Below are positions 2,741 through 30,190 of a DNA stretch of 30,190 nt, piece by piece (position 1 is the stretch's first letter; each line of letters begins with the position of its first letter). The position numbers and the translations under genes are program-made. Origin of the DNA: a virus (Duplodnaviria > Caudoviricetes). Location of the stretch: positions 1-30,190 of IMG/VR virus record IMGVR_UViG_3300044724_003649. One strand, given 5' to 3'. Under the pieces are notes generated by a model that was not told the origin of the DNA, made no database searches, and saw nothing but the letters and a program-made list of their open reading frames with translations.

Positions 2741-2749
2741 ATAATTTTA

Positions 2750-5128: not shown

Positions 5129-5181
5129 TTTGTCTCCTGCCAAATAATCTTTTCTTTTGTGTGTTCTACTATTTACAATTA

Positions 5182-7273: not shown

Positions 7274-7969
7274 CTATTTATGATAATTGACGTAGTAGTC
7301 CTCGACACGTTTTAACCACTCGTTGCACCAATGCTCAAATTCACTAGGTTCAAGGTCAAACTGTTGATATTGTAATTCTCGTGAACACATAAACACATGA
7401 CCTTCGTTAATATTAGTGCCGTAAACAGCATTATGAGCCATTGCATAAGCCGCCATCTGCAGATAGTAATCTTCAACCCATTCTTTTTTCTTGGGTTTAT
7501 TAGTTTGTTTAAAGTCCATAATAGCAGGCTTGCCTTTGTATACACCTACTAAGTCTGTTGTGCCTGAATAAAGTTCAGGATAATATAATGCTTGTTCAAT
7601 ACCCCATATTTCATCTACATCAGTTAATGCACTTTCGATGATTACATCTGCCATCTTGTTTGCTTGTACATGAACTAGATTATTTCCAGGTTTGCGTTGT
7701 TCGCCTATAAGGAAACGTTCAAGGTTGTTGTGCATTGCTGTACCAACACCTGCGGCCTCAGTAGTAATTCGTTGTGCTTCTTGTTCACCTACACGCTTTT
7801 TCCATGCGTTTAAATGCGTCATATCCTTTGTTTTACTTAGGATAGTTGTAACGCTTGGTGTTTTAGTACCATCAGGTGCTTCGTAAAGTCTTTTGCCTTC
7901 TAAATTGATTTGCTTAACTTTATGGTATTCAAATTTTTCCACATACGGTGGCGGGGTTAGTTCATTCAT
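7274..7969 (-). CDS. PD-(D/E)xK exonuclease (Cas4/MGME1-like)
   Basis: PSVTTIL, GTAMH, E..LY, GTTDL, IMDFKQ and QMAAY motifs. Confidence 0.88.
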   Translation of the reverse strand: MNELTPPPYVEKFEYHKVKQINLEGKRLYEAPDGTKTPSVTTILSKTKDMTHLNAWKKRVGEQEAQRITTEAAGVGTAMHNNLERFLIGEQRKPGNNLVHVQANKMADVIIESALTDVDEIWGIEQALYYPELYSGTTDLVGVYKGKPAIMDFKQTNKPKKKEWVEDYYLQMAAYAMAHNAVYGTNINEGHVFMCSRELQYQQFDLEPSEFEHWCNEWLKRVEDYYVNYHK

Positions 7970-9567: not shown

Positions 9568-9587
9568 TTGTTAATCCCCTATATGCT

Positions 9588-10079
9588 TTATTTATTGTCA
9601 AACAGTAATTTTTCTGCATCATCTAGAATAGTATTTACCTCTTGCTTGATAGGTTTTAACGCATCATAATGATAGTCTATCCTGCTTAACACTATTTCAG
9701 AACGCACATTGTCGCCTGCTTCTAATGCTTTATTGCTTGTATGTTTATATATCCTAATATTTTGCAGATGATGACAATAGCGATTATCAACACCTAGTAT
9801 TTGGTCTATATTGCGTATTTCTTGTTTTTTGCCCAGGTTAATTGCTATGGCCATTGCGATCTTATGCACACAAATACTGCTGTAATACACTATTTTTGGG
9901 TTGTGTAGGTTGGTGATATCATAAAATCCGCCACCGTTTTTCTTTACAAATACATGTAAAAACTTGATCCCACCGTTATGGGCAACAGGCAACACAAAGC
10001 CTTTGGCCTTAAGATCACTTTGTACAGATCTAAAGGTGGCTTGAAAATTGTCGACTAGTTTTTTGACGTCAGGTTTCAT
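9588..10079 (-). CDS. Hypothetical protein, 163 aa
   Basis: Full ORF with a promoter immediately upstream. Confidence 0.75.
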   Translation of the reverse strand: MKPDVKKLVDNFQATFRSVQSDLKAKGFVLPVAHNGGIKFLHVFVKKNGGGFYDITNLHNPKIVYYSSICVHKIAMAIAINLGKKQEIRNIDQILGVDNRYCHHLQNIRIYKHTSNKALEAGDNVRSEIVLSRIDYHYDALKPIKQEVNTILDDAEKLLFDNK

Positions 10080-10085
10080 TCAGTT

Positions 10086-10114
10086 ATTATAACAAATTAT
10101 TTGCTATTGAGCAA
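10086..10114 (-). promoter_or_regulatory. Sigma70-like promoter, probably giving a leaderless mRNA
   Basis: TTGCTC-N17-TATAAT with extended TG; -10 ends 6 nt before ATG 10079; no SD. Confidence 0.55.
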
Positions 10115-10490
10115 GATCTTTTTTATTAAATTTAATACTATTTGGCAAACCAGGCTTTTTGTTAATTGGCTCTAGTTCTACTTGATCACCGGCTACGGCT
10201 TTAACTTTGAATTTTTCAGGTCTTGCTGGATTGTCAGCGTTTGGCACATCAATTTCTTGCCCACGCATAAATTTGGCTTGATCCATTTTTTGTGAAGCAT
10301 TATTACCAATTGGTGGTGTTTTATCTGTAGTGTTTTGTGCATTAGGATCTTGTCCAGGCTTAACTGTACCAACAGTACCTTGAGGATCTCCGGACTTTGT
10401 GTCTTGTGTTCCTACGCCCGTTTTATTCTTTTGTTGTAGAGCAGTTTTGGCACTTACTGCTAATGGTATACCTAGTTCACTAATTCTCAT
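10104..10490 (-). CDS. Hypothetical protein, 128 aa
   Basis: TAATG coupling; MRISEL N-terminus; flexible Q/T/K/P-rich linker. Confidence 0.75.
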   Translation of the reverse strand: MRISELGIPLAVSAKTALQQKNKTGVGTQDTKSGDPQGTVGTVKPGQDPNAQNTTDKTPPIGNNASQKMDQAKFMRGQEIDVPNADNPARPEKFKVKAVAGDQVELEPINKKPGLPNSIKFNKKDLAQ

Positions 10491-12365: not shown

Positions 12366-13250
12366 TTAGTTTTTTGCTATTTTTGCTTTATTATGCACCT
12401 GTCTTAATAGGTTTACATAGCCAGGACCTGCTTTTACTATGTCATCTATTATTTGCATAATAGGTCTATATGCTTGTGCAAACCTAGGAGGTAGTGCTTG
12501 TCCTCTGCTTACAATGCTTAATGCTTTATAGGCAAATGGTAAATCTTTTGTTGGGACTCCTAGTAAACGTAGCATATTAATATCTTTTACATCTGCTTCT
12601 ACTGGATCAGGAATACTAACCATAGGTTCTGTATCTCTTGTTCTAGCACTTTCTAAATCATAACTTAATACAAACATAGTAAAGTAATCAACTAGGTCGC
12701 TGTTTCTGCCTCGTGCCTTAAGTGCATTTTCTAAACGTGTTACTGTGTCTTTTCTTTCTAGGTTATTCATTCTTACATAGTTAGAAACTTTTCTTCTAAT
12801 AACACTGTAACTTGTAATGCCGTTTTTAAGTGCGTTATCAATCTTCATAATGTCGCCGGCATCTTGTAGGCTAGGTGCTTTGTTATTCGCCATATCACGC
12901 AACAAACGTTTTGCTGTTAGTGTAGGAAAATGTGTGCGTTCACGCATCAACATTGCACTCTTAGGATCTTTTAATTTTTCTAGTATTCTTTTGTCGCCAT
13001 CTATAATAGAAAGTAAATTATACATGTCATTGCCACTGTTTCTATGACTGGTCCAATCGTTCCATTTAAGAACTTCACTTGCGTAACTTTGTACAAACTT
13101 TCTTGATTGTGGATAATAACGCATTGTTTGTAGTGCTAGAAAATACAGCAACACAAGATCGCTTACGTCAGTAAATGTCATTCTCTCCATATTGTTATTA
13201 CGGATAAGTTTGCCTTCGTTTACGAAATCAAAAAACTTGTAGTCACTCAT
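12366..13250 (-). CDS. Hypothetical protein, 294 aa
   Basis: Long ORF, TAATG-coupled to the upstream gene. Confidence 0.8.
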   Translation of the reverse strand: MSDYKFFDFVNEGKLIRNNNMERMTFTDVSDLVLLYFLALQTMRYYPQSRKFVQSYASEVLKWNDWTSHRNSGNDMYNLLSIIDGDKRILEKLKDPKSAMLMRERTHFPTLTAKRLLRDMANNKAPSLQDAGDIMKIDNALKNGITSYSVIRRKVSNYVRMNNLERKDTVTRLENALKARGRNSDLVDYFTMFVLSYDLESARTRDTEPMVSIPDPVEADVKDINMLRLLGVPTKDLPFAYKALSIVSRGQALPPRFAQAYRPIMQIIDDIVKAGPGYVNLLRQVHNKAKIAKN

Positions 13251-14485
13251 TAACTAAAGTCCTTAGGTGTTGTAAAGTTTCTATAAGAAAACTCTAGTCT
13301 ATCAACAATCTTAACTGCTCCACCTACATGGTCGATGGCTACGTAGCCTTCGGGTGATCCTGCTTCGTAGCCATCTTGTGTTCTATAAAAATGTGCTATG
13401 CTTTCTACTGCGTTTAGTTTTCTAATAAAAAGATTTTTTAAGGCTGTAATTTCTTTCATAAATTCAATAATTGCACTCAAGCCTTTTCTGTTTGCATTGA
13501 TAAAATTCATGTTGCTTTGTATTTTTTGTAGTCTATTTTTTACTGCTGGTTTTTCTGGATCTTGATTTTTTAGTTTAGCAATCTCTGCTTCGATTCTTTC
13601 TCTGTACCAATCAATAAACCCGTTTAGAAACTCGCCAGGATCACCTGCTAGTTTTTGTTGTCTAATATTTGTGTTAATCCAAATTTTAAAGTTTTGAATA
13701 AAAGGTTCGTTTGATTTTAGTGCTTGCCATACTGCTCCTGGCACTGCTTTATAAGCGGCCATAGCGTCTGCCAAATCCTGTTTCGCTTGTGCTGTTTCAT
13801 CTTTTGTCATTAACACTGATCCAGATACATCTTTAAAAAACGCATCATCAAACCATACGTCCGGTGTGCGTTTAAGTTTATTAATATCTACATCATAGTT
13901 TGCCTCTGATGTTCCTAGTGTATCGCCTACATAATTTGTGTGAAATATAATACCAAACTTTGCTTTACCAATACGTTTACCAATATCGCTGTCAACTGGC
14001 ACTGCATAGGTAATAATCTGTGGCTTGAATACATACATCATTTGGCCGTCGATTTCTTCTTTTTTCAATGTTGTTTCATTAAACATAAAGTCGCCTTGAA
14101 GTACGCCTGTAATACCTAGTTTGCCTAGATGTTCAAATGCTTCATGTAGTTTAGATACTGCACCTGACTCACCATATAGTCTGTCTATTTCTTCGTGGCT
14201 GGTTCCCAGTTTAGGTGTTGCATTGAACACACCTTTTGTTCCTACAAAGAACTTACCACTCTCTGGATCAATACCAACAATAATAGCAGGAGCACCGTCC
14301 CACTTTACTGAAACTCTAAATTTTTTATTTGTACGTCCTTTGAGCATGTCAGCAAACATCATCATCTGCTTGATAGCATATTCAGCACCTTCTTTACCAC
14401 GGTTAAGAATTTCTTCTTCAACGTGTTCCATGTGTGTGTTTTTGCCAGCCGACTCGTTTAATTTAAGAACTTCTTCAATCAACAT
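13250..14485 (-). CDS. DUF6267-like protein with ligase/nucleotidyltransferase-type motifs
   Basis: KNTHMEHVEE, SVKWDGAPA, LQGDFMF, PEGYVA and VKIVDRLEFS motifs. Confidence 0.75.
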   Translation of the reverse strand: MLIEEVLKLNESAGKNTHMEHVEEEILNRGKEGAEYAIKQMMMFADMLKGRTNKKFRVSVKWDGAPAIIVGIDPESGKFFVGTKGVFNATPKLGTSHEEIDRLYGESGAVSKLHEAFEHLGKLGITGVLQGDFMFNETTLKKEEIDGQMMYVFKPQIITYAVPVDSDIGKRIGKAKFGIIFHTNYVGDTLGTSEANYDVDINKLKRTPDVWFDDAFFKDVSGSVLMTKDETAQAKQDLADAMAAYKAVPGAVWQALKSNEPFIQNFKIWINTNIRQQKLAGDPGEFLNGFIDWYRERIEAEIAKLKNQDPEKPAVKNRLQKIQSNMNFINANRKGLSAIIEFMKEITALKNLFIRKLNAVESIAHFYRTQDGYEAGSPEGYVAIDHVGGAVKIVDRLEFSYRNFTTPKDFS

Positions 14486-14799: not shown

Positions 14800-15408
14800 A
14801 TGACTATTGTTGATTTTATAATAGAACAATTAATCACTTGGTGGCAATTTACTGTCGTTGGTGTATTAATAATTATAGGTTATGTGATTAATTTATTTGG
14901 TGTTGATCAAGATAAACCTATTGTAAATCTAAAGTATGAAGGAATGCCGTCAATGATTCCTATTAGAATACCCACAGCAGGAAAAGGTTTCTGGGGTGCA
15001 ATTTGGATGTGGCTTACAGGTGTACGCACATGGGAAATTGGCAAAGATTGGCATTTTTCAGTAAATGGGGAAGACTATGTAATACCAAAAGGCTTTGTGT
15101 TTGACGGTGCAAGTGTTCCTAAGTTTTTAGCATCATGGCTATCACCAGTTGGTGTCTTGCTAGTTGGCGGATTAGTACATGATTACGTTTACAAATATAC
15201 TGTGCTACTCAAGTACGGTAAAAAGTCTGCTTCTAATGTAATGAATCAAAAACAAGCAGATGAATTGTTCCGTGATATTAACATTGAACAGAACGGTTTT
15301 CACTTTCTAAACAACTTGGCTTACTGGGCATTACGCTTAGGTGGTTTTGTTGCTTGGAACGGTCACAGAAAAAGAAACTGTGATTGGAAAGAGTCGATGA
15401 AAAAATAA
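14800..15408 (+). CDS. DUF1353-like protein with N-terminal membrane segment
   Basis: IPKGFVFDGASVP, LVHDYVY, ADELF and ALRLGG motifs; GGAGG RBS. Confidence 0.8.
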   Translation: MTIVDFIIEQLITWWQFTVVGVLIIIGYVINLFGVDQDKPIVNLKYEGMPSMIPIRIPTAGKGFWGAIWMWLTGVRTWEIGKDWHFSVNGEDYVIPKGFVFDGASVPKFLASWLSPVGVLLVGGLVHDYVYKYTVLLKYGKKSASNVMNQKQADELFRDINIEQNGFHFLNNLAYWALRLGGFVAWNGHRKRNCDWKESMKK

Positions 15409-16353: not shown

Positions 16354-16361
16354 TATAAATA
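16354..16361 (+). promoter_or_regulatory. T4-type late promoter TATAAATA
   Basis: Exact consensus upstream of the structured leader and small-gene operon. Confidence 0.6.
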
Positions 16362-17996: not shown

Positions 17997-18025
17997 TTGA
18001 CAGATATAAATACTTCTGTTATATT
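17997..18025 (+). promoter_or_regulatory. Composite promoter: sigma70 with an embedded late element
   Basis: TTGACA-N17-TATATT with extended TG; TATAAATA at 18005-18012 inside the spacer. Confidence 0.65.
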
Positions 18026-18445: not shown

Positions 18446-19132
18446 CTAGTAATGAAAAAAGAATACTTGATTTCTACGAACTTCTTTTTGCCAACGATCT
18501 GATTCAAGTGCCATACCGTGATATATTAAACTAGGAAAAACTACTGCCCTGTTGAATTTACTAGGCATGTGACCTCCCTTTATCCATCTATCTTTAGGAC
18601 TCCATGGATCGCTATGTTCACTGTTTCGTTCTGCACCTGATCTAACTGCACTATCGAAACCATGTTGTGCAATCATTTTAGGCATGCCTGCTCTATGATA
18701 TAGATTAGTACCTTCGCAACCTTCTTCGTTAAGATATATTAGTGCTGTCCAGCCATGGTCAAGATGTGGCCACCACCAATGTGTTTCGTGTTTATCAAAT
18801 TCTGGATCTAATACTGTAAATGTATTTGTAAGGATTGTGTGTCCTTCATTTTTGTATTCCTTTGCCCCGCATATCTTCGCCAGGGTAAAAGCAACACCTT
18901 CCATACCAACATGAGTACCTGTATGACGTCTATCTGCAAATGCTTTACCATTTAGACTGTTTGGTTCTCCTTCTTTGAACAGCGTATACTGACATTGTGT
19001 GTCAAGGAATTCATTAACACCTTTTGGATCAGCATAAAAATCATCTATTTGCCAATAGTATCTTTCGTAATACGGTAATTCAATCTTCTGCACATCGGCT
19101 TTGGAATTCATTAGAAAAGGATTTTGTGTCAT
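18446..19132 (-). CDS. DUF6445-like 2OG-Fe(II) oxygenase-fold protein
   Basis: IDDFYADP, PHLD (HxD), ALIYLN, GTNLY, FNRAVVF..YHG, RRNQVFF. Confidence 0.8.
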   Translation of the reverse strand: MTQNPFLMNSKADVQKIELPYYERYYWQIDDFYADPKGVNEFLDTQCQYTLFKEGEPNSLNGKAFADRRHTGTHVGMEGVAFTLAKICGAKEYKNEGHTILTNTFTVLDPEFDKHETHWWWPHLDHGWTALIYLNEEGCEGTNLYHRAGMPKMIAQHGFDSAVRSGAERNSEHSDPWSPKDRWIKGGHMPSKFNRAVVFPSLIYHGMALESDRWQKEVRRNQVFFFHY

Positions 19133-19156
19133 GATAATATTTAATCTCTCATGAAA

Positions 19157-20434
19157 TTAAATTAATGCAAGTTGGTATTTTGCAAGTAACGCAGGATCAT
19201 CTATAGAACATTTTGACTTAATACCTAGCCCTTGTATTATACACAACCAACTAAACACATCGTACCATTGCCAGTTGTTTTGTTTAATATAGTCAAATTC
19301 ATTTTCTACAATTAGTTTTTGATATGTTTTGTCAAACCATTTAGCATTTTTTTGGTTTGTCCAAAATTCTGTATTGCTGTTAGGATTATCAATATAATGT
19401 AATTTAAGAAAGGTTCTTATTTCATGTGCTGATTTGTATAGTTCAGCATTAAACTCGTCAACTGTCATACTAGAAGCAAACACTCTGTCTAATAAATCTA
19501 GTTCTGTTATTGTAAATTCTATGTTAGTTGCTTCCATTGGCTCTACAAAGTGTGCTGATAATCCTATTGCTATGACATTTCCCTTCATAATATTCTTTTG
19601 TACACCAACATCAAATTTTATAGTTCTAGCATCTGGAACACCTATTTCTTGTCGTGCTTGATCTGGACCGATATAACTGCTATCAAATACATATCCTCTG
19701 CCGGCACGATCTTTTGTGTGTATTGTCCAACACCAACCATATTCTTTTGCTTCTAAGATAGTATATGGACAAAACTCTTTGAACGGTTCATTCCAAACTA
19801 CTGCACTATCTACAACTCCTTTATCGTTCCAAGATTCAAAGTCGTCGTTGCCAACTAACACTTTATGAAATCCTGTGCAATCAATAAAATAGTCTGCTGT
19901 AATTTCGTGTTCGTTATCTAGTACAATACTCTTTATGTGGTTGTCGTCTCTTTTGATATTTGACACTTGCTGTTTAATAATTGTTATTTTATTCTTTAAT
20001 AGTTTTTCAAGGTACTGTGGTACAAGCCCTGCTTGCCAATGTATTGCTACACCCTCTAAACTGTCAGGCACTTGTTTGTTAACTACAAAGTTATAAAAAT
20101 TTGATAATGGTGCTACTGGTCGATTATTAGCGTATGCCCAAGTACTTACATCTAAAAACTCTTGATCATCTCTAATGTTAAAAGGATGACAATATTCTTT
20201 TTTACTAAAGTTTACATGATAAGTTGCAAGTTTTATTGCACCATTAACTTCTTTAATGTATTCCTGTAAATCTATACCTTGTCTTAACAACCATTCTACT
20301 AATCTATCTGTGGTAGATTCTCCTACTCCAACAGTTGGAATACTACTGTCGATAATAGTTACATTATGATTTTTACTCAATGACAATGCAGATAACCAAC
20401 CTGCTGTTCCGCCACCTACAATTACTATGTTCAT
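19157..20434 (-). CDS. Flavin-dependent halogenase homologue (tryptophan halogenase family)
   Basis: IVGGGTAGW, GVGEST, GAIKL (Lys at the PrnA catalytic position), FIDCTGF, GWCWTI, FVEPMEAT. Confidence 0.88.
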   Translation of the reverse strand: MNIVIVGGGTAGWLSALSLSKNHNVTIIDSSIPTVGVGESTTDRLVEWLLRQGIDLQEYIKEVNGAIKLATYHVNFSKKEYCHPFNIRDDQEFLDVSTWAYANNRPVAPLSNFYNFVVNKQVPDSLEGVAIHWQAGLVPQYLEKLLKNKITIIKQQVSNIKRDDNHIKSIVLDNEHEITADYFIDCTGFHKVLVGNDDFESWNDKGVVDSAVVWNEPFKEFCPYTILEAKEYGWCWTIHTKDRAGRGYVFDSSYIGPDQARQEIGVPDARTIKFDVGVQKNIMKGNVIAIGLSAHFVEPMEATNIEFTITELDLLDRVFASSMTVDEFNAELYKSAHEIRTFLKLHYIDNPNSNTEFWTNQKNAKWFDKTYQKLIVENEFDYIKQNNWQWYDVFSWLCIIQGLGIKSKCSIDDPALLAKYQLALI

Positions 20435-21000
20435 ATCTTTTCGAGCAGTTCTCCGGCAGTTCCTTCTACAACTGTAATACTATTAGTATCAATAACTTCC
20501 TTATAAGTTTTGTCCCATAAAGGTTGTAGTTCTTTACTGGCCGCAGGTCCTTGTCTAATACTGTCTGTTATTAAATCGTGTTCTGGATTGTGTCTTACAA
20601 AGTACACTTCGTGAAATGCTTTTGCTTGAGCAACTGCCATATCCCAGTAGTATTGTTCAAACTTTTTGTCTACCATGCCTAATTCAAATGCACACTTGTT
20701 AAACACTAGATAATCTAATGGCAAACGTTTTGTAATAAACACATCACAACTGTATTCATGCTCTAACATTTGACTCCAATGCCTATGAAACAGCCAACTG
20801 CAACTGTCAATGTTGCCACCTATTTCTTTTGCTAGGATATCGTGGTCCATAAACATTGTGCTACGAACAGTTTCAGGCATGTAAGTTACATTAACTCCAC
20901 GTTGACCAAACTTTTCTCTTTGTAGTAATTTTATACATACGGTATTTTTGCCAACACCGTGGGCACCTACTACTGCTATTCTTTTGTCTGCTACACTCAT
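20431..21000 (-). CDS. P-loop NTPase / nucleotide-kinase-like protein
   Basis: IAVVGAHGVGKNT Walker A; PETVR; KRLPLD. Confidence 0.7.
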   Translation of the reverse strand: MSVADKRIAVVGAHGVGKNTVCIKLLQREKFGQRGVNVTYMPETVRSTMFMDHDILAKEIGGNIDSCSWLFHRHWSQMLEHEYSCDVFITKRLPLDYLVFNKCAFELGMVDKKFEQYYWDMAVAQAKAFHEVYFVRHNPEHDLITDSIRQGPAASKELQPLWDKTYKEVIDTNSITVVEGTAGELLEKI

Positions 21001-21602
21001 TGCTTTAAACTGTCCTCTTGATATATCTTATCTCTATCTTGTATATCATACTGTGATATATGTGTTGCATCTAGGGTATTGATATTATACTCTAATCCAA
21101 ATATAGTAAATTTATATTTTGGTTTTGTAAAAGGTATGCTTAAATCTCTAAACCATTTTCTAACCCATTCAATGTTATCGTGAAAGAAATATATCTTTCT
21201 TAGGTGTTCGACACCTTCCCCATAGTAAACACCTATACCACTTTTAATTACATCTATTCTACTGCCTGGTGGAAGTGCAGGTAACGGATGCTGTTGTAAA
21301 TTTTGATCGTATACTTTTAATACTCTAGTTTCTTTTTTAATAAAGCATTCGATAGCATAATAATCACAAAAAATATGATAATCTTTTACTCTAAACTCTT
21401 GTATAACATCTTCGCTAGGATAAACTTCATAGGTAAGATTGATTTTTTCTTTGTTAGGATCGTAACTAATCATGTGCAAACCTTGAAAATCAAAGTCTGG
21501 CCAAACAGCCAATACCATTGCTTTGTATTCTAATGCTGACTCACTACTAGCATCTACAAATATTTCGTTGGCTCCGTCACTGCTTATTTTAGTTTCAATC
21601 AT
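20997..21602 (-). CDS. Hypothetical protein, 201 aa
   Basis: ORF overlapping both neighbours in the cluster. Confidence 0.7.
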   Translation of the reverse strand: MIETKISSDGANEIFVDASSESALEYKAMVLAVWPDFDFQGLHMISYDPNKEKINLTYEVYPSEDVIQEFRVKDYHIFCDYYAIECFIKKETRVLKVYDQNLQQHPLPALPPGSRIDVIKSGIGVYYGEGVEHLRKIYFFHDNIEWVRKWFRDLSIPFTKPKYKFTIFGLEYNINTLDATHISQYDIQDRDKIYQEDSLKQ

Positions 21603-22008
21603 TTAACATAAACTCATCTTTAAAGTAGTTTCTAATATCAGGAATAACTCCTTGTGTTTCATCAAATCCTAACCCTACACTGTTAATTATAGCATCGTAT
21701 ATTTCTTTGCTCATTTTTGAATACTTGTAAGGCACAAAGTAAGGATCATTGTTGTATAATAATTCAGGGTCATCTAGCACTTCCCAAAAGTTTTCTGCAA
21801 ACTCTTTGCTTAACCATTTTGCATAACAGATAGCAACAACAAAACTTTTGCTAGGATAAATCCAGCCGGGATCTTTCGTGAAGTATTTTACAGCATTATC
21901 AACTATTTCTTGTCCGTGAACAAACACCAACTGCTTGTCCTTAAGATCATCACCGTGTGATTGATTAAGCCTGTGATATACTTCTTGTCTTACTTTCCAG
22001 TCTTGCAT
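21595..22008 (-). CDS. Hypothetical protein, 137 aa, radical-SAM-associated
   Basis: Overlaps the 3' end of a rSAM gene; YPSKS..AICYA..DPYF. Confidence 0.7.
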   Translation of the reverse strand: MQDWKVRQEVYHRLNQSHGDDLKDKQLVFVHGQEIVDNAVKYFTKDPGWIYPSKSFVVAICYAKWLSKEFAENFWEVLDDPELLYNNDPYFVPYKYSKMSKEIYDAIINSVGLGFDETQGVIPDIRNYFKDEFMLND

Positions 22009-22906
22009 AATCTAATAATCCTTTGTACCCGTTACAACCGTTGTCTAAATCTTTAACCCATCTGTAATGTTCTGTCAAACAATTACCAAAGTATTCGCAA
22101 CTGTGACACACAGGACTGCAATTTTTAGTTGGCTCTTGCTCTGCCCATTGTTTGTATTCAGCATAGGTATCTAGTTCTAAAAAATATTCTTTATCGTCTT
22201 TGTCAAATTCTAGCACTCCAAACTTACCATTAGGAGTAATGTAAACATGATCACTAGAAAACGCATTGTATTCTTTTGCTAGACTTTCTTGTATTTGATC
22301 TTTGTTAATAAAATGAAAACGTTTAGGTGTTGATGCTTCTAACCATTTGATAACAAACTGTTCAAACTGTTTATGTGTAACTGAATAATTGTTTGCTTGA
22401 TTAATACTGTACGGCTTTATTTCTACACTGGTTACACTGCTACATGCATTGAGTCTTGTTATCATGCTCTCTACGTCCATTGCAATAACTTCAGGACTTG
22501 CTAGAATTAGTACAGCGATTGGAACAGGACTTTGTAACATATTTTGATACACACGATCGCTTTTTTCTCTTGCTTCAAAGTCATAACTTACACTTAGATA
22601 AAAGTCATTTTCAAAGAAGCCTTCATGTAGCATACTAAAGTTTGTGATAATGTTTATATCATCTCTGTAATGCTTTCTAATTACATCACGCATACCATAG
22701 AAATAATCTTTTTTAAGAGCACCTATTTCGCCGCCATACAAATCAACATGTGTGATTTTATCAACCATACGTATCTCTAGTAAACGTTCATCTAATATAT
22801 CTAAATCAATTTTGTTTTGATCAGCGAGTTGTTCTGGTGTAAGATAACAAAACTTACATCTAAAGTTACAAAAATAACTAGGATTAATTGACACGTTCAT
22901 CTGCAA
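21965..22906 (-). CDS. Radical SAM enzyme with C-terminal Cys cluster (SPASM-like)
   Basis: CNFRCKFC, YGGE, TN; C-terminal CSPVCHSCEYFGNC..C. Confidence 0.9.
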   Translation of the reverse strand: MQMNVSINPSYFCNFRCKFCYLTPEQLADQNKIDLDILDERLLEIRMVDKITHVDLYGGEIGALKKDYFYGMRDVIRKHYRDDINIITNFSMLHEGFFENDFYLSVSYDFEAREKSDRVYQNMLQSPVPIAVLILASPEVIAMDVESMITRLNACSSVTSVEIKPYSINQANNYSVTHKQFEQFVIKWLEASTPKRFHFINKDQIQESLAKEYNAFSSDHVYITPNGKFGVLEFDKDDKEYFLELDTYAEYKQWAEQEPTKNCSPVCHSCEYFGNCLTEHYRWVKDLDNGCNGYKGLLDYARLESKTRSISQA

Positions 22907-23450
22907 TATCCTTTTTAATAATTTGTAACAGTTTATTTTTACTGTATTTTGATAATAGTTTTCTAGTCAACCAATTACTGTTTTTAAACAAACCTATATA
23001 AAGATATCTATAGTCATCATAGTTTTTTAAAAACAGGTTGTTCATATATTCAACTTCTTGTTTTTTATCTTGTATGCCAACAACCTTTCCTATACTTTCA
23101 TTTGTGTTGTTAACTTGCTCTCTTATTTCAAAGTTAATGCCGGGAACATCTTGCATAGTCTTTATGACACTGTACATTCTTCCTTGTATATTATCGCCGC
23201 CAAATGCTAACATAATATACCAATTCATATTTTGTTTATTGTAGTAGTGTCCTTCGCAACTGCTTATAGGCAAATAACCTTTGTGTACAAACTCTTGCAC
23301 GTGATATTGCACACCTTCTTCTATTTCTTTGTAGAACTTCATATCAAACGGACTGGCTGTGTATGCAACATATCCTGTTTCATATGTATCATCGGGGTTA
23401 GCCGAACCATGTATTCTGCCATTTGCAAACAGTTTATTCTTCAATGTCAT
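22884..23450 (-). CDS. Hypothetical protein with SSCEGH motif
   Basis: KGYLPISSCEGH; likely start MTLKNK at 23450 after AAGGG. Confidence 0.65.
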   Translation of the reverse strand: MTLKNKLFANGRIHGSANPDDTYETGYVAYTASPFDMKFYKEIEEGVQYHVQEFVHKGYLPISSCEGHYYNKQNMNWYIMLAFGGDNIQGRMYSVIKTMQDVPGINFEIREQVNNTNESIGKVVGIQDKKQEVEYMNNLFLKNYDDYRYLYIGLFKNSNWLTRKLLSKYSKNKLLQIIKKDIADERVN

Positions 23451-24117
23451 ACCCTTTAATTTTATTCCACGCCCAATGATGATCGTAACCACAACTTGCA
23501 ATCACACTGTAACGCAGTTGATCCGTTTCATTTACTCTATGTACAAACTTGGGATTTTGATTGTTTAAAATTATCATAGTGTTATTGTCAATATCTATTT
23601 TGCCTGTGCTAACAACATCGCCTTCTATGTAATTTAAACCTTTGCTAGGTTGCCAATGCGGAAAACTGTCAGTGTCTTTGACTTGTATTTTATTTGCTAT
23701 TCCTACTTCAAACTGTCCTTGCTGTAAAGGTTGTAGATAAAATAGCAACTGTATAAATGTTCCATCGAACCCGTCCCAATGCCAGTCCATGCTAGAGCCA
23801 GGTTGCATTTTGTTAATGCTTACTTTGAAGAAACTGAAGTCTCCGTAAATTTCGTTCCAATACTTAAAGTATTCTTGTTGCAATAAGTCTTTGATTAGTT
23901 TTACATACTTGTCTTGTGATTCATAAAAGTTAAGATCAAGATCCTGATAGTCCCTATCCCATAAAGGGTTTTCAACACCTGGATATGTTCCACTACCAAA
24001 CTGTTCACTGAATACATAGCCTGCCAGATGATCAATAAACGATCTATCTATTGTGCTAGTATCATATCCTTTTTCAAAAAAACTGTTTAAGTTTGGTGCT
24101 TGTTTAATCATTTTCAT
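23434..24117 (-). CDS. 2OG-Fe(II) oxygenase
   Basis: WHWDG (HxD), LFYL, NNQNPKFVHRV and RYS. Confidence 0.82.
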   Translation of the reverse strand: MKMIKQAPNLNSFFEKGYDTSTIDRSFIDHLAGYVFSEQFGSGTYPGVENPLWDRDYQDLDLNFYESQDKYVKLIKDLLQQEYFKYWNEIYGDFSFFKVSINKMQPGSSMDWHWDGFDGTFIQLLFYLQPLQQGQFEVGIANKIQVKDTDSFPHWQPSKGLNYIEGDVVSTGKIDIDNNTMIILNNQNPKFVHRVNETDQLRYSVIASCGYDHHWAWNKIKGYDIEE

Positions 24118-25195
24118 TTACATATGGAGTAACTTCTACTCCTTCTAATCCATTTGCTTCAAGTATTTTTGGAGCAATTGATTTCATAATTTTACAATGT
24201 GCTTCAACTACATTGTGTTGTTTAAAGTCTTTGACTGTTTTTCTACAGCCATTACATATATCAAACATAGGACAAGTATAACATGATTTCTTCATACTTG
24301 CAAGTTCAAAACTATCCTGAAGTGGTGTAAAGAATTCACCATTCATTTCACGTTCAAAGTTAATTGGCTTGTCCATATCATCTCCAAACGCACCACAACT
24401 GTAATAGTCACCGCCTGGATTCATAGCACGTATGCCTTCGTCACATTTTCTATTCTGCGGACAACTTGTGGCATTACCTTTTAGTCTTTGCATCATTTGT
24501 TTGGTGTTAAATTCCCATGGAGCAAGTCCTGCTTCCCATATATCAACATAGGTTTTATATATCTTAGATAGCAAGTAAGGACGGTCCTGTTCACCACTGC
24601 TCATTGCGTAGTTAAGTTTACACTCAACTCCTGTTTTATCTTGTCTATCAAAATTATGTAATGTTCCGCCAGGCTCTAGTCCTTCGCTCATTTCCATAGC
24701 AAGTTCTACATTTTTAATTGCTAGATGATCGTTTGTATCTGTTACTACACTGATGAAGTCAGGACGATAACCGCAGTGTTCTAGCATAGCATCGCTTACC
24801 TTCCAAAAGTCTTCTACAGTAAACAAACTAAAGTCGCCCTTCAATCTACCATCACCATAGTTAAAACTTGTAGTGATTCCTACACGCTCATTGTTAAACA
24901 ATGCTTTCCATTTATTAGGCTTAACATAGAATGGCCATAGGTTTGTTGTAAGTGCTATTGATGTTGACATTTCATGCTCATCAAGATAGTCTATTATCTT
25001 CCAATAGTAGTCTGGGTCCATCATTAAAGGATCGCCGCCATTAACAATTATTGTATTTGTGTTTGGATAACGTTTTAGAAATCTAAAGATGTGTTCGTGA
25101 TCTAATACTACTTTGCCATGCTCTGCAATTTTTGTGCTTGAACAAAACGTACATTTAAAATTACAAAGTTCAGTTGGTTTAATAATTAATTCCAT
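24104..25195 (-). CDS. Radical SAM/SPASM enzyme
   Basis: IKPTELCNFKCTFC, GGDPL, TTN; SPASM-like CPQNRKC, GDYYSC, CYTCPMFDICNGC, HC. Confidence 0.92.
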   Translation of the reverse strand: MELIIKPTELCNFKCTFCSSTKIAEHGKVVLDHEHIFRFLKRYPNTNTIIVNGGDPLMMDPDYYWKIIDYLDEHEMSTSIALTTNLWPFYVKPNKWKALFNNERVGITTSFNYGDGRLKGDFSLFTVEDFWKVSDAMLEHCGYRPDFISVVTDTNDHLAIKNVELAMEMSEGLEPGGTLHNFDRQDKTGVECKLNYAMSSGEQDRPYLLSKIYKTYVDIWEAGLAPWEFNTKQMMQRLKGNATSCPQNRKCDEGIRAMNPGGDYYSCGAFGDDMDKPINFEREMNGEFFTPLQDSFELASMKKSCYTCPMFDICNGCRKTVKDFKQHNVVEAHCKIMKSIAPKILEANGLEGVEVTPYVNEND

Positions 25196-25839
25196 ACGCT
25201 TATTCCTACATTTAAAGTATATCTATTTTTAGTATTATCTTTTAGTTGTCCTACACTGTGTACAAATCGTGGATTCATATTGTTTAACAGTATCACTTTA
25301 CCATCTGATGGTATTATAGTATTTTCATTATACACTTTATCATCAGGCCATTCACGCTCTGCAATTTTTAAAACACTTCCGTATTCTTCTTTCCAATTAG
25401 GTTCGTCAGTTAGGTAAATTAAAAATCCTAGGTCATGGTCCTCAACTCCGTCCCAATGATATGCTAGTTCGTCACTGCCGTTCCACAAATCTATAAAACG
25501 TAGTTCATAGTCAAACCCGCATGTTTCTCTAAACCATTTGCTGTAATAAGTGTTATCAAACAACTGCTTGATGCTATCAACATACACTTGTGGTACAACA
25601 TCTAAACTAGAAGCACTTTTTGCTTTCTCATATTCTCTGTTGTATTCTCTATCCTGTTTAGGTGGTGTTGTTATATCTGTGTTAATGCTCCAACTAGGTA
25701 TGCTCTTATACACTGAATGCTCTGACCATTCTTCTGTGTATATTGCTCCCCATAACATTGTGCGGATGTCTTCGGGTAACGACCATTCATCATACCCATG
25801 CTTGTAAAAGTTATTCACGTTTAGCATCGACATAGTCAT
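25186..25839 (-). CDS. 2OG-Fe(II) oxygenase
   Basis: YHWDG, LIYLTDEPNWKEEYG, NNMNPRFVHSV and RYT. Confidence 0.82.
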   Translation of the reverse strand: MTMSMLNVNNFYKHGYDEWSLPEDIRTMLWGAIYTEEWSEHSVYKSIPSWSINTDITTPPKQDREYNREYEKAKSASSLDVVPQVYVDSIKQLFDNTYYSKWFRETCGFDYELRFIDLWNGSDELAYHWDGVEDHDLGFLIYLTDEPNWKEEYGSVLKIAEREWPDDKVYNENTIIPSDGKVILLNNMNPRFVHSVGQLKDNTKNRYTLNVGISVWN

Positions 25840-26812
25840 ATACCTCCGCTAACCAACAAGGCTCTTGTGTTCTAAAACTCTTTAGATGATTGCTTAGGAA
25901 ACACCCCATAGAGCATCTTTGAAAGTGTGGACACTCTAAACAGTTATAGTCTTCAAACCATTTTTGTTCCATCTCTGCTTTTGTTGGTTTGTAACCATCT
26001 AAGTCTTGTGATAGTAATATTGTACACCCGCCGGCGTCTCCACTAGGCATAATAGTAAATGTATCTTGGCAGGTCATGCGTTTCTTTTGCTTGTTAGGAT
26101 AATCTTTGAAAGGTAAACAGTTAGGATAGTTGTCTACCATAAACTTCATAAAGTCACGCAACTGCACATCATTAGGAGTCATACGCTCTCTATTCTTTTC
26201 TGGTGTGTAGTAATCAAAATATATGTCGTAGTTGTCGTATAAAAAATCAAAGAAAGGTGTAGCACGTTTTAAGAACTTTTCAATGTTAGGCTTTGTCATA
26301 ATAACATTAGCACTCTTAATATAATTCTTAAACAGTCTTACGTTCTCTTGAAACTTTTCTAACTGTCCGTAACCAAAACGTCCACTAGGATCATAACTTG
26401 TTAGCAATTTAATTTGAGGGCAATCATCTAGTAATTTTTGTAGTCTGTCTGTGCGTTCGTAAACAAAGTTTGTAGTAAAACATATTTCAACATCATAGTT
26501 GTTTTCTTTGCTCCACTTATCTAATTCATCTGCTAGATATCTGTAATCATCAAAACAACTGTCAGGAACAAGATCACTAAACACTTCACCGCCCATAAAG
26601 TGAACGCTGAACATGCCTCGGGTAGCACTCATGTTTTTAATAGCACGTTGTACAACTTCAAGTTTATCTCGTATGGTATCCATACCAACCTTGCTGTTGT
26701 GATCTTGATTACAAAACTTACAACTCATATTACACTGTTCAAACAGCGTAACAATAATTTCTCCAAGAATACTTCTCTTGTTGGTCTTTGTAATAATGTT
26801 GTGTTCTATCAT
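25811..26812 (-). CDS. Radical SAM/SPASM-like enzyme
   Basis: CNMSCKFC, MGGE, TTN; TC..IMPSGDAGGC, CLECPHFQRCSMGC, PC. Confidence 0.9.
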   Translation of the reverse strand: MIEHNIITKTNKRSILGEIIVTLFEQCNMSCKFCNQDHNSKVGMDTIRDKLEVVQRAIKNMSATRGMFSVHFMGGEVFSDLVPDSCFDDYRYLADELDKWSKENNYDVEICFTTNFVYERTDRLQKLLDDCPQIKLLTSYDPSGRFGYGQLEKFQENVRLFKNYIKSANVIMTKPNIEKFLKRATPFFDFLYDNYDIYFDYYTPEKNRERMTPNDVQLRDFMKFMVDNYPNCLPFKDYPNKQKKRMTCQDTFTIMPSGDAGGCTILLSQDLDGYKPTKAEMEQKWFEDYNCLECPHFQRCSMGCFLSNHLKSFRTQEPCWLAEVYDYVDAKRE

Positions 26813-27369
26813 TCAACTATCTCATTAAAGGTCATATTGCACACTAGACTTAATCTAGTTTCACTGCCTAGGTACGGTGTAACCTCGTGCCATACATAGT
26901 AAGGTGCGGCAACTAATAATCCTGTTTCAGGTTTAATTTCTTTGTACGGCTTGCCGGGAGCAAACGCTTTCTTGCTTTGCCAGCGTGGATCATATAATCT
27001 AAGTTTGCCACTGTCTACACTGTTGCCTGTGTCTACATAAAATATAGCAAACGCATCTATAACATCATGCGAGTGAACACCTTTGAAATCACCAAACTTC
27101 ATAGGATTGATTATGTTTAGTTCTGTCATTGTGTAGTTGCAAGGATGTCCTGCACTTTCACATAGTGTATCAAAAGCAAGTTTGAATCTGTCTTCCATAT
27201 CAGGAAAGGCAGAAAAATTTACATTCTCATCTGCAATATTAGTCACACCTGACGCTTTCATATCTGCCATTTTGGCATTGATAAGTGTTGTCAAATGTTT
27301 TTGCCATTCTTCGTCATCATCATATTGACGAGAATAGATTGGCGTTTCCCAATATGTATCAATAGTCAT
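26809..27369 (-). CDS. Putative 2OG-Fe(II) oxygenase (TIGR02466-like)
   Basis: WETPIY, HSH, IFYV, GKLRLYDPR, PETG, WHEVTP and RLSLVCN. Confidence 0.78.
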   Translation of the reverse strand: MTIDTYWETPIYSRQYDDDEEWQKHLTTLINAKMADMKASGVTNIADENVNFSAFPDMEDRFKLAFDTLCESAGHPCNYTMTELNIINPMKFGDFKGVHSHDVIDAFAIFYVDTGNSVDSGKLRLYDPRWQSKKAFAPGKPYKEIKPETGLLVAAPYYVWHEVTPYLGSETRLSLVCNMTFNEIVE

Positions 27370-27400: not shown

Positions 27401-28483
27401 TTAGCCTATTGAAAAGTTTGCCAAACTAGATGAGTTTGCTTTTTTCAATTTGTAAAAATAGTTAAGAAGCAATACATTTACTTTTAATCTATCTTCAATT
27501 TCAAATGCACTTAGAGCACTGTTGATATCTTTATCTAATACTGTGTCAATATCACTGCTAGAAAGTTTAGTATCTGCTTTTTGTACAATTTTAATTACTT
27601 CTTTAGATAGTGTGCTGTCATCATCGCCGGCATCAGTACCTGACGCCTCAAACATCTTTTGTCTAAAGTCAGCAACATCAATTTTAAGACTGTCAATTGA
27701 CTGAGCATTTAAAACAAAATCAATCTTGTCGTTTGTGCCTTCTAGGGCAAAAAGATCTTCATCAAGGTTGTAAGTAACACCTAGTAAGTTTGCTACCCAA
27801 TCTTTATTGATGTTCTGTAATAAACTGCTTCTAATAAACAATGCTTCGTCCATAACCTTTTTGCTTAGGATAGCATACATCTTAATACCTAGTGCTTCGT
27901 CATAGGTATTGTTACCACCGAGTTTGTTAGCAATTAAAAACTCAATTGGTGCTTTTGCTCTAATCTTACCTGTTAGTGTTGCATTGGCTTCTACTGTTAC
28001 AGTTTTAAATAGTCCTTGAAACTTTTCTTTGTTCAAGTACTCAAATGCGTTTGCCAAGTTCTTTTGACTGTCAACGCCTTTGTTGTCACTGCCCCAAGTA
28101 AAGTCTTGTCTAGTAATTAACTTTGCTTCTGTAACATTGGCATTGTAAACTTTGTATGCATCTTCTTTTGTTATTGTTGGGTATAGTAACTTTATCCATT
28201 TAACAAATAATGTATTGTATGTTGTAGCATCTACAAAGATATCCATTGTACCTTTTGATAGCAAGAATTCAAAAAATTCTGAATCATTAGGAAACTGTTT
28301 TTCAGCACCAACTAGGTCTGCATATGAATCTACATTAAAGTAACTTTCACCTAAGTTTCTAAACTTAGTTTCAATTTGGTCTAAAAGCACTTCACTTAGT
28401 GCTGATGAAATAACACCACGTGGACGTTCCATATCCATACGGTATTCTGGCTTTACATATACTTTATCAAATAGTAGAAACAT
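27401..28483 (-). CDS. Hypothetical protein, 360 aa
   Basis: Long ORF within the cluster; MFLLFDKVY. Confidence 0.75.
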   Translation of the reverse strand: MFLLFDKVYVKPEYRMDMERPRGVISSALSEVLLDQIETKFRNLGESYFNVDSYADLVGAEKQFPNDSEFFEFLLSKGTMDIFVDATTYNTLFVKWIKLLYPTITKEDAYKVYNANVTEAKLITRQDFTWGSDNKGVDSQKNLANAFEYLNKEKFQGLFKTVTVEANATLTGKIRAKAPIEFLIANKLGGNNTYDEALGIKMYAILSKKVMDEALFIRSSLLQNINKDWVANLLGVTYNLDEDLFALEGTNDKIDFVLNAQSIDSLKIDVADFRQKMFEASGTDAGDDDSTLSKEVIKIVQKADTKLSSSDIDTVLDKDINSALSAFEIEDRLKVNVLLLNYFYKLKKANSSSLANFSIG

Positions 28484-29204
28484 TCTCTAAACTCTCTTCT
28501 TTTAACTGTTTGTATTTATTTGAATCCCACATTCCTTCAGCAACTGCATCGCTAATCAATGCCACAGTATTACCAGGAACAAACCAATAATTGTACATTG
28601 GATCGCCCTTAAACATAGGTTGCTCAAATTGTTTCGTCAAAAATTTGCGTTCATTTACAGGAACATGCGGGAATATTTCATATAGATCGTGATATTTGTA
28701 AAGATTTACGTAGTTGATGCCACAGAACTGATCATCATCGATCTTTTCAAAGCCTTCAATGCTTTTCTTAACACCTTCGTCGTTGACACAATGCAAGTTG
28801 TAAATGCTACCACTAGTAATAGCAACCATCCATTTATCAACTATTTCAACATGTTCTTCTATAAAATCTTTTGCTTCATTAAAACTTAACAGTTTGTTTT
28901 TGTACAATGCACCTTGGTTTTCGTTAATATTAGCAAGTAAAATTTGTAGCACTGTTAACTCTAGCGATGGTAATTTAACAAGCATTCTTGTCTGCATATA
29001 GTCAGCAATAAATTCTACAACTTCTCTGTGCTCTACATCTTTAAAATTAACATCACATGGGACATCAAGATTGCTTAGATAAGTTAAAAGTTTTTCACCT
29101 TTTAATGTGCTTTTACTATAATCAATTATAAATGTGATAGACTTATCTTCAAAATAAGACTTAAGGTCCTCTAAAGGAATAGGTGCAATAGTGTTTTTAG
29201 TCAT
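28467..29204 (-). CDS. Hypothetical protein, 245 aa
   Basis: TAATG-coupled to the Cys/His-tail gene; IDYSKSTLKG..LTYLSNL. Confidence 0.75.
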   Translation of the reverse strand: MTKNTIAPIPLEDLKSYFEDKSITFIIDYSKSTLKGEKLLTYLSNLDVPCDVNFKDVEHREVVEFIADYMQTRMLVKLPSLELTVLQILLANINENQGALYKNKLLSFNEAKDFIEEHVEIVDKWMVAITSGSIYNLHCVNDEGVKKSIEGFEKIDDDQFCGINYVNLYKYHDLYEIFPHVPVNERKFLTKQFEQPMFKGDPMYNYWFVPGNTVALISDAVAEGMWDSNKYKQLKEESLENVSTI

Positions 29205-29761
29205 TAACGTCTACCTCGTGAACCGTGGCAATTACTGTGACAACTGCTGTGACATCTAGTAAAGTCTTCGGCTTTAACTGTATCACGTTTTTCGTCCATC
29301 TCTCTTTGTAGATCACCAAAATAGGTTTCTAATCCAGTAACACTCACTAGATCATCTTCTTCAACGGTACTTGCATCGATACCATCGAGTGCAAGTCTTT
29401 CTGTATTGGTAAGATAAGCAACCTGCGTATCATCAAAATCAATACGAGGATTTGCTTCACCTGTTCCTGATGTTTGTGTTAATAATCTTGCTCTTTGTTT
29501 TCTAATTTTAGTATATTCAAATGCTTCACCTTCTAGTGTAGCAATTAAATCACTTGAATCAATTGTCGATCCTGAAATATCTGTTCCTGTAATACCAATA
29601 GCACGGCCAGTTGTAGTACCACCATAGACAGCATCAGGCATCTGTGTAAACGGTTTGTTGTTTGTTCCCCATACAACCTGTGTGTTATTGTGTGAAACGA
29701 CAAAATCCGCAAATCTATCCACAATATTTTGCTTTCTAATAGGGTTTGTTAGTGTAGCCAT
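29204..29761 (-). CDS. Putative modification substrate/precursor: 185 aa with C-terminal CHSSCHSNCHGSRGRR
   Basis: The only three Cys lie in the last 16 aa as (CHxx)3; gene abuts a rSAM/SPASM gene. Confidence 0.75.
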   Translation of the reverse strand: MATLTNPIRKQNIVDRFADFVVSHNNTQVVWGTNNKPFTQMPDAVYGGTTTGRAIGITGTDISGSTIDSSDLIATLEGEAFEYTKIRKQRARLLTQTSGTGEANPRIDFDDTQVAYLTNTERLALDGIDASTVEEDDLVSVTGLETYFGDLQREMDEKRDTVKAEDFTRCHSSCHSNCHGSRGRR

Positions 29762-30190
29762 CTAGTTATGTACCTTTATTAATTTCTCTGTAAACTTTGC
29801 ATTTCTTTTAAATGTATGTGTATTTATATCATCTTTTAGTTTCATCATGAGTGTTTTTGGCGAAGCACACACATCATCTTCCCATTCTAATTGGTGACAA
29901 TCACTGCCGCACACATCAAACACAGGACATTCAAAACATCTAGGATCACGTGCTGTTTCGCAGGCTATAATAGTGCGTCTTTTTGGATTGAATAACAGTT
30001 CTGCTATGGGCATATCCAGTGTTCCGTAGTGATCTTCTGGTGCTGAATTAGGGCATCCTGCTATGGTTCCATCTGCATTAATTGTAAACATCTTTTGTTC
30101 ACAGTTTCTGCACCATGTTCCTGCATCTGGAAAGCCTAGTTCAAATTTAGCATAGATGTTTTCCATAAACGTATGATAGATTTTATCACG
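29762..30190 (-). CDS. Radical SAM/SPASM enzyme, 3' part only (truncated by the window edge)
   Basis: Frame open to 30190; CRNC, INADGTIAGC, CFECPVFDVCGSDC..C SPASM pattern. Confidence 0.85.
   Translation of the reverse strand, partial: RDKIYHTFMENIYAKFELGFPDAGTWCRNCEQKMFTINADGTIAGCPNSAPEDHYGTLDMPIAELLFNPKRRTIIACETARDPRCFECPVFDVCGSDCHQLEWEDDVCASPKTLMMKLKDDINTHTFKRNAKFTEKLIKVHN

Follow-up and report, generated by a model that had tools for sequence, protein, structure and literature searches.

A phage protein with a conserved Cys-His tail, encoded within a multi-radical-SAM cassette, as a probable enzyme-modified virion component

The DNA analyzed here (the window) is a 30,190-nucleotide stretch of a Caudoviricetes virus (IMG/VR record IMGVR_UViG_3300044724_003649). 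Near one end of the window, the minus strand encodes a protein, here called the carrier, that begins MATLTNPI and ends CHSSCHSNCHGSRGRR directly before its stop codon, embedded in a cassette of radical-SAM enzymes, oxygenases, and partner genes (Table 1). The first 169 residues contain no cysteine, and all three cysteines lie in the tail, where the units CHSS, CHSN, and CHGS are followed by a basic RGRR end; an earlier note on this DNA had described this arrangement without naming a strand, and it is confirmed here on the 185-aa minus-strand ORF. The description of the body as rich in Thr and Asp likewise stands, with 24 Thr and 17 Asp making up 24% of residues 1–169. The pattern CHxxCHxxCH arose in none of 200,000 residue shuffles of the carrier, and no second Cys/His-repeat candidate was found in a real ORF of the window. 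That all three units are His-Xaa-Ser triplets is correct only in part: HSS and HGS fit, but HSN does not, leaving tandem His-Xaa-Ser motifs in two of three units. Across 133 diverse homologs the fourth position of units 1, 2, and 3 is Ser in 123, 100, and 119 cases, the main alternative being Asn, which is common in the second unit, with Ala and Asp also tolerated; His-Xaa-Ser therefore fits the family, but not every unit.

Table 1. Features of the carrier locus in the window, with the strand and the basis of each assignment where given.
Feature	Positions	Strand	Basis
Late-promoter motif of T4 type, TATAAATA, 60 bases before the carrier start and inside the end of F0	29821..29828	-	single site not above chance; conserved in relatives
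Radical-SAM/SPASM enzyme F0, C-terminal (SPASM) part, truncated at the window end; next to the carrier on its upstream side in nearly all relatives	29762..30190	-	family searches, synteny
Carrier protein, 185 aa: folded alpha/beta body (residues 1-170) and conserved tail; likely virion component and enzyme substrate	29204..29761	-	sequence, predicted structure, homologs
Tail, (CHxS/N)x3-RGRR plus stop codon; predicted modification site	29204..29254	-	sequence, homolog conservation
Conserved partner F2 (phrog_20767), 245 aa, folded, without a match among solved structures; scaffold or chaperone candidate	28467..29204	-	
Conserved partner F4, 360 aa, no family	27401..28483	-	
2OG-Fe(II) oxygenase, variable accessory	26809..27369	-	
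Radical-SAM enzyme F5	25811..26812	-	
2OG-Fe(II) oxygenase, variable accessory	25186..25839	-	
Radical-SAM/SPASM enzyme F6, the cassette's most conserved enzyme	24104..25195	-	
2OG-Fe(II) oxygenase-like, variable accessory	23434..24117	-	weak Pfam match
Variable cassette gene F19, no family	22884..23501	-	
Radical-SAM enzyme F7	21965..22906	-	
Conserved small partner F8 (phrog_20737), 137 aa	21595..22008	-	
Lineage-specific extension: F31, P-loop kinase-like, tryptophan-halogenase-family, and DUF6445 genes; possible accessory tailoring enzymes	18446..21602	-	

The earlier count of at least four radical-SAM genes nearby is borne out by F0, F5, F6, and F7, which belong to one run of genes and are distant relatives of one another. 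The three that are complete in the window measure 313–363 aa, and their CxxxCxxC motif starts within the first 30 residues, a position that leaves them without an N-terminal recognition domain. The top-ranked NCBIfam matches of F0, F5, and F6 are mostly peptide or protein maturases (DarE, PapB, anaerobic sulfatase maturase, DynA), with F6 ranking anaerobic sulfatase maturase first at 48 bits versus a cut-off of 349; viperin is the first-ranked match of F7. The partners F2, F4, and F8 have no NCBIfam match up to E 5, and fold searches with F2 returned no solved match, which does not of itself prove a novel fold. Cassettes hold 4–8 enzymes, as against three repeats in the tail. A B12-binding radical-SAM gene, a possible methyltransferase, is an optional member in 35 loci (e.g., L017, 8707–10377) and is absent from the window. 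The halogenase, DUF6445, and kinase-like genes of the extension may be accessory tailoring enzymes, acting on the same substrate or on a fiber. Annotation of the conserved cassette families revealed no protease or exporter; one Bacteriovorax cassette has two ABC-transporter genes next to it. The rest of the window includes ordinary large-phage content, namely a class Ia ribonucleotide reductase pair, a Cas4-like exonuclease, DUF6267, and DUF1353 (1610–5143, 7274–7969, 13250–14485, and 14800–15408). Another radical-SAM cluster, with an MgoB-like gene, is described in phages RP12 and RP31 (PMC5468394); these phages are absent from the F2 and F6 matches, and their cluster may be a separate system.

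A word-based search yielded 561 carrier homologs among 760 candidates, and an exhaustive search yielded 220 clusters at 50% identity. The earlier note had allowed that its reading would fall if the tail were poorly conserved among homologs; the exact C-terminus CHxxCHxxCHxxRxRR is instead present in 118 of the 120 homologs listed from the word-based search and in 133 of the 150 listed from the exhaustive one. Three CH units are kept in 142 of the latter 150, the other eight being three short fragments, one sequence that ends after two units, and four variants. Over 51 dereplicated loci, mean identity is 87% in the tail versus 46% in the body. The tail is widespread, its 16 residues being close to invariant across hundreds of phages and numerous predatory bacteria. 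The carrier has no match in Pfam or NCBIfam, and PHROGs matches its C-terminal part only, to a family of unknown function (phrog_35144). A crude hydropathy test found a hydrophobic N-terminal stretch in one of 251 homologs. Related-phage contigs in three RNA libraries partly cover the carrier gene, although such contigs cannot show transcription.

Complete carriers span 124 to 402 aa, and some are tandem pairs. A Gly-rich region is fused ahead of a whole carrier in P0129; at three loci (L069, L071, and L072, about 9070–10438) the gene is split, with residues 1–43 joined to a Gly_rich_2 domain and the remainder forming a separate 140-aa ORF; and a group of 257-aa carriers has an insert near the place of that split. 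We infer from these fused and inserted Gly-rich domains the behavior of a modular surface protein. One group of phages (L088, L091, L116, L124, L390, L409, L422, L425) has tandem short carriers of 124–140 aa and up to five copies of a radical-SAM-like family, F24, while divergent versions occur at L083, L113, L123, L141, and L456, some with at least four CH units or bodies of 257–402 aa.

The association between tail and enzymes was examined from both directions. A DNA pattern for the tail only, independent of the body, was run over part of each collection (25 and 39 of 64 parts). In this search of C-termini and their neighbors, of a kind that the earlier note had proposed, 143 of 145 matches on viral contigs run up to a stop codon. 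The note's other stated ground for doubt, that homologs might routinely occur without radical-SAM neighbors, finds no support, as all 58 viral loci of at least 9 kb that the tail pattern picked out by itself have two or more ORFs with the radical-SAM CxxxCxxC motif. In genomes, 23 of 89 matches are terminal; enzymes are present at eight of 11 long terminal loci, the other three being frames of 29–38 residues, and any radical-SAM-motif ORF occurs at three of 40 loci with non-terminal, chance matches. In the reverse direction, among F6 loci with at least 9 kb upstream (the viral ones drawn from the best 80 of 377), a carrier is present at 45 of 49 viral and 22 of 25 genome loci, or 67 of 74. Six of the seven loci without a carrier end early downstream, and the four viral misses share one arrangement, complete examples of which carry the carrier about 10 kb downstream. 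On a Bacteriovoracaceae chromosome (L444, 875–7942), the enzymes surround a 2355-aa RCC1-repeat protein, with no carrier within 10 kb.

Among 91 redundant loci (79 viral, 11 genome, and the window), the neighbor families recur in the order F0 (86), F2 (83), a cupin (77), F4 (76), F5 (74), F6 (73), F7 (69), and F8 (63). Carrier divergence correlates with that of every neighbor tested (Spearman 0.23–0.71), a pattern that reflects shared ancestry and so names no particular partner. The linkage of tail and enzymes persists on bacterial chromosomes as well as in T4-like, phiKZ-like, and Rak2-related phages, while the adjoining fiber genes switch family. From this association we infer that the radical-SAM enzymes act on the tail as their substrate.

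The carrier gene also appears to have its own regulatory signal. The motif TATAAATA is the T4 late promoter and is used by cyanophages as well (PMC2984593). It occurs three times in the window versus 4.1 expected; two of these sites, 16354–16361 and 18005–18012 (+), lie ahead of small plus-strand ORFs and are not above chance alone. In 57 of 65 T4-like loci the motif occurs no more than 200 bases upstream of the carrier; the shorter ATAAATA does so in 63 (6.3 expected). Upstream of other cassette genes the late motif is found at one of 69 loci for F0, six of 61 for F5, none of 59 for F6, none of 59 for F7, none of 69 for F2, and none of 54 for F8. It usually falls within the coding sequence of F0, in different frames, and where the end of F0 encodes Ile-Asn-Ser the codons spell the motif at 33 of 35 sites versus none of 115 control sites, which indicates that the motif is selected as DNA. 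It is absent before all five cultured-phage carriers, all 16 from Bdellovibrionota, and 41 of 79 in a wider viral set. Judging from this promoter sequence, the carrier gene is likely expressed late.

AlphaFold2 (53 sequences) models the carrier with a pLDDT of 88.4 and a pTM of 0.81, with low values of 57 and 51 in the tail; ESM Atlas returned nothing usable for the carrier or for F4. In the prediction, the body folds into its own domain, with three long helices and three long strands, and the tail hangs free from the last strand. Against solved structures, Foldseek found no match at E 0.001 and the best VIA-align hit reached Z 3.7, results that do not in themselves prove the fold novel. A viral structure library contains four carrier matches at E ≤0.001, all unnamed or uncharacterized, including a 296-aa protein of Agrobacterium phage Atu_ph07; the library holds three proteins of 504–660 aa with the carrier fold from one myovirus.

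Direct tblastn of the carrier against cultured phages found no match, and cultured homologs were reached through more distant carriers and partner genes. The cassette is present in 15 cultured-phage records, among them Atu_ph07, Sinorhizobium phage Phosso, Ralstonia and Burkholderia phages of Chiangmaivirus type, and a Pseudomonas jumbo phage, and the tail is present in all five cultured-phage carriers inspected. Counting from gp180 identifies the Atu_ph07 carrier, AUZ94952, as gp170, and the computed masses of gp170, gp176, and gp177 (31.89, 66.07, and 21.66 kDa) equal those tabulated for the virion proteome (PMC6102473, Table S5). In that table gp170 is detected in virions with eight unique peptides and 35% coverage; gp164–169, gp171, and gp172—the enzymes, cupin, and F2—are absent from it. 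The likeness of gp170 to the family is distant but detectable (296 aa, 62 bits to the family profile, Foldseek E 8e-7, TM 0.54), and the detection concerns this one distant homolog in a PEG-purified preparation rather than the phage of the window. The suggestion in the earlier note that a tail-bearing protein might be displayed on the virion thus gains real support, from gp170 in Atu_ph07 particles together with the late-promoter motif conserved in T4-like loci. Its term "precursor," with a disposable body, does not suit a body that is predicted to be folded (pLDDT 88) and whose homolog is detected in a virion proteome; on the structural model, the body is not a leader peptide.

In the Atu_ph07 gel, gp170 peaks in band 1, at the top, and is the only one of 41 proteins of 25–45 kDa with at least three peptides to do so (three of 51 when proteins with fewer peptides are counted), which suggests an SDS-resistant assembly. 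The loading buffer as written lists no reductant (PMC6102473), and annotated tail-fiber proteins of 61–80 kDa also peak high, in band 2, so that disulfides or a stable oligomer would explain the top band as well as enzymatic crosslinks would. Whether the 35% coverage of gp170 includes the tail peptide was also considered, and an inference from coverage was rejected: counting only fully cleaved peptides of at least seven residues leaves a single solution, without the tail, but once missed cleavages are allowed most solutions (9,123 of 13,205) include it.

The genes around the cassette point toward the tail fiber. The usual order in T4-like phages is a baseplate wedge, a giant DUF4815 protein, a small virion protein, a fiber with a Peptidase_G2-like C-terminal domain, a cupin, F0, the carrier, F2, F4, the other enzymes, and an LtfC-like fiber-assembly gene. 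A fiber with this autocleavage domain lies within 4.5 kb upstream at 103 of 150 redundant loci, Atu_ph07 and Phosso included; many of the 47 loci without it are phiKZ-like, with a different fiber family upstream (10 of 10 such genes tested). The window ends before its own genes upstream of F0; in its closest relatives, L001 and L004, the upstream genes are halogenase (two in addition to the halogenase-family gene of the extension), oxygenase, and (in L001) ligase genes, and not a fiber gene. The sole recognized fiber-like gene of the window is a tailspike-like gene (5598–7253, minus strand) with an Mtd N-terminal domain and a pectate-lyase-like beta-helix. Bacterial cassettes extend the pattern: 27 of 38 genome matches of F6 are titled Bdellovibrionota, and the flanks tested there hold housekeeping genes (e.g., SHMT, FabF, ribosomal L25, CarB, and pyruvate kinase), indicating that the cassette is chromosomal in this group. 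S74-chaperone fiber genes were found in the flank at 12 of 25 Bdellovibrionota loci, two of which are contigs used to build the profile; none was found in the fetched flank at the other 13. S74 fibers are described as prey-recognition fibers in Bdellovibrio (PMC10769870). The S74-chaperone proteins beside the cassettes at L238, L087, L290, L428, L434, L443, L448–L450, and L455 are short (320–395 aa), with prepilin-like N-termini in those inspected, unlike the roughly 1000-aa MAT fibers of B. bacteriovorus. The carrier is probably attached to the tail fiber.

Taken together, we think it probable that the carrier belongs to the virion and has a tail modified by enzymes; we are much less certain of the exact chemistry and of the site. 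In the mechanism we propose, the carrier would be expressed late, and the four radical-SAM enzymes of the surrounding genes would introduce covalent changes into its Cys-His tail of 16 residues. Modification would take place in the cytoplasm, before assembly, and would be helped by F2, F4, and F8, which are proposed as scaffolds because the enzymes are without an N-terminal recognition domain. Most likely, the C-H-x-S units would be stapled, through Cys thioethers or through His-to-Ser crosslinks, with RxRR retained as a recognition end and cationic tip, and the variable oxygenases, halogenase, or B12 methylase might add further decoration. The modified carrier would then join the particle at or near the fiber, where it could present a rigid, basic tip or crosslink to its neighbors; the likely product would be either a crosslink between subunits or a rigid element for host contact, hardened chemically. 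A more ambitious reading, which we hold to be doubtful, is that the cassette is a portable device common to large phages of three unrelated lineages and to predatory Bdellovibrionota: a subunit of novel fold whose Cys-His tail would be crosslinked by the multi-radical-SAM cassette into an SDS-resistant assembly at chaperone-cleaved fiber ends, gripping or breaching Gram-negative surfaces. Were this true, RiPP-type chemistry would for the first time be seen as part of a virus particle, and viruses and predatory bacteria would have a prey-contact tool in common.

The tail might alternatively be released. As a strict RiPP precursor, the carrier would have its tail modified and cut off to give a free or injected peptide—serving, for example, superinfection exclusion or counter-defense in mimicry of HxsA—and the body would be only its vehicle. 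All of the conservation does sit in the C-terminal 16 residues, flexibility is predicted for the tail, an ABC-transporter pair adjoins the one Bacteriovorax cassette, and the published Atu_ph07 proteome is compatible with a particle that has the tail peptide or lacks it; HxsA itself, a His-Xaa-Ser protein matured by radical-SAM enzymes, is cleaved and blocks phage DNA entry (PMC13128918). We nevertheless consider release unlikely, given a body that is predicted to be well folded, accepts inserted and fused structural-type domains, and is detected in virions as its Atu_ph07 homolog, along with the lack of a protease or exporter among the annotated conserved families and the rarity of hydrophobic N-termini. 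A further alternative dispenses with tail modification: the three Cys and three His, at i,i+4 spacing, could form an unmodified metal or Fe-S site on a virion protein, with the enzymes and oxygenases acting elsewhere (on a fiber protein, DNA bases, or a small molecule). Cys and His are common metal ligands, and these are the near-invariant residues of the tail, whereas the Ser of position 4 tolerates Asn, Ala, and Asp. Enzymes also outnumber the repeats, and the high gel band could be due to disulfides in a loading buffer that lists no reductant (PMC6102473). This arrangement is nonetheless improbable, as it would leave unexplained the two-way linkage of enzymes and tail across three kinds of phage and bacteria, and no other real ORF of the window offers a Cys/His-repeat candidate.

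It is also conceivable, though very unlikely, that the tail is where the enzymes assemble a cofactor or metallocluster, in the manner of anaerobic sulfatase or cluster maturases, producing a catalytic or redox-active virion tip and not a stapled peptide. Anaerobic sulfatase maturase oxidizes a Cys in a folded protein, and it is the family that F6 ranks first; B12-dependent radical-SAM genes, moreover, join the cassette in 35 loci. But the 48 bits of that match lie far below the cut-off, the short tail is predicted to be flexible, and a conserved catalytic set of His, Cys, or acidic residues is missing from the body.

A virion protein with an enzyme-modified tail would bear on several existing accounts. 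Aquatic T4-like phages are rich in genes for radical-SAM enzymes, 2OG-oxygenases, and halogenases, which have been interpreted as auxiliary metabolism, without a substrate (PMC5332604, PMC11898562), the first of these papers taking such genes for Fe-S metabolism; for carrier-bearing phages, too, the enzymes are listed without a substrate (PMC11898562, PMC8066314). The carrier tail is a concrete candidate substrate for a set of these genes. If the interpretation is right, phages finish a particle protein with RiPP-type chemistry, which would add four or more new enzyme families and a new fold; it would offer a reason why such peptides have been missed in virion proteomes, and it would link phage fibers to the prey-contact fibers of predatory bacteria. 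Because the cassette occurs in cultured phages that have laboratory hosts and the tail is a single tryptic peptide, the question of modification is directly testable.

The closest parallel in concept is the HXS anti-phage system (HxsA/B/C/D; Li et al. 2026), in which two radical-SAM enzymes work with a partner to mature a protein of the His-Xaa-Ser type (PMC13128918). As in the carrier system, the substrate is a full protein with short His-Xaa-Ser repeats rich in basic residues, served by several radical-SAM enzymes and a small partner, and acting at the phage–cell interface (PMC13128918). HxsA is, however, a bacterial periplasmic effector with a signal peptide, a domain that binds peptidoglycan, and five N-terminal repeats (PMC13128918), whereas the carrier's repeats hold Cys, are C-terminal, and end in RxRR on a different predicted fold, in phages. 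The HxsA model matched neither the carrier nor six diverse homologs up to E 5, in searches where HMMER filters drop most matches above E ~0.1, and no HxsD match was found among F2, F4, and F8. The best enzyme scores are 14.9 versus 370 bits for HxsB (TIGR03978) and 26.9 versus 267.9 for HxsC (TIGR03977), and the carrier has no Pfam match to a signal peptide or peptidoglycan-binding domain. With no HxsA or HxsD match, enzyme scores of about a tenth of the cut-offs or less, and no signal peptide, the carrier system is not a member of HXS.

Nor can it be filed with the ranthi/sactipeptides or triceptides, as the earlier note had done alongside the His-Xaa-Ser family, given that all enzyme scores lie far below the family cut-offs. 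It resembles CXXX-repeat (TIGR04115) and ranthi/sactipeptide systems (PapB, RumMC) in having Cys at every fourth residue, small flanking residues, and SPASM-type enzymes nearby, but it differs in having only three Cys, each before a His, on a folded body of 170 residues. Those peptides are defined by a short leader-core precursor and an RRE-bearing maturase, as against a 185-aa folded carrier and enzymes with an N-terminal cluster motif; the best scores are 34.8 versus 350 bits for TIGR04115 (full-length F0 of L001), 37.1 versus 340 for PapB, and 19.1 versus 720 for RumMC. The His-x-x triplets could serve as the three-residue cyclophane sites of triceptides. The corresponding enzyme families (XyeB, GrrM, FxsB, YhhB, AmcB) score 18–33 bits versus cut-offs of 310–450, and triceptide substrates are short exported peptides, unlike the carrier. 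His-Xaa-Ser precursors with unrelated enzymes have also been named (PMC9062424).

On the structural side, cassette loci with the fiber-then-small-protein order, and the carrier variants with fused Gly-rich domains, recall the gp38-type adhesins. In T-even phages, these fiber-tip adhesins follow a fiber with an autocleavage chaperone, as a small protein next in gene order. The carrier has no match to gp38 in PHROGs, Foldseek, or VIA-align (best Z 3.7). The S74 fiber genes beside Bdellovibrionota cassettes similarly recall the MAT fibers of Bdellovibrio, the account of which, so far as it was available, mentions no maturase cassette (PMC10769870). "Radical SAM" does not occur in PMC7824862, and the literature searched, which mostly excludes subscription papers, contains no description of the cassette or the tail. 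The carrier system, apparently undescribed and without precedent in that literature, would thus represent radical-SAM protein maturation, a process of a known kind, in the setting of the virus particle.
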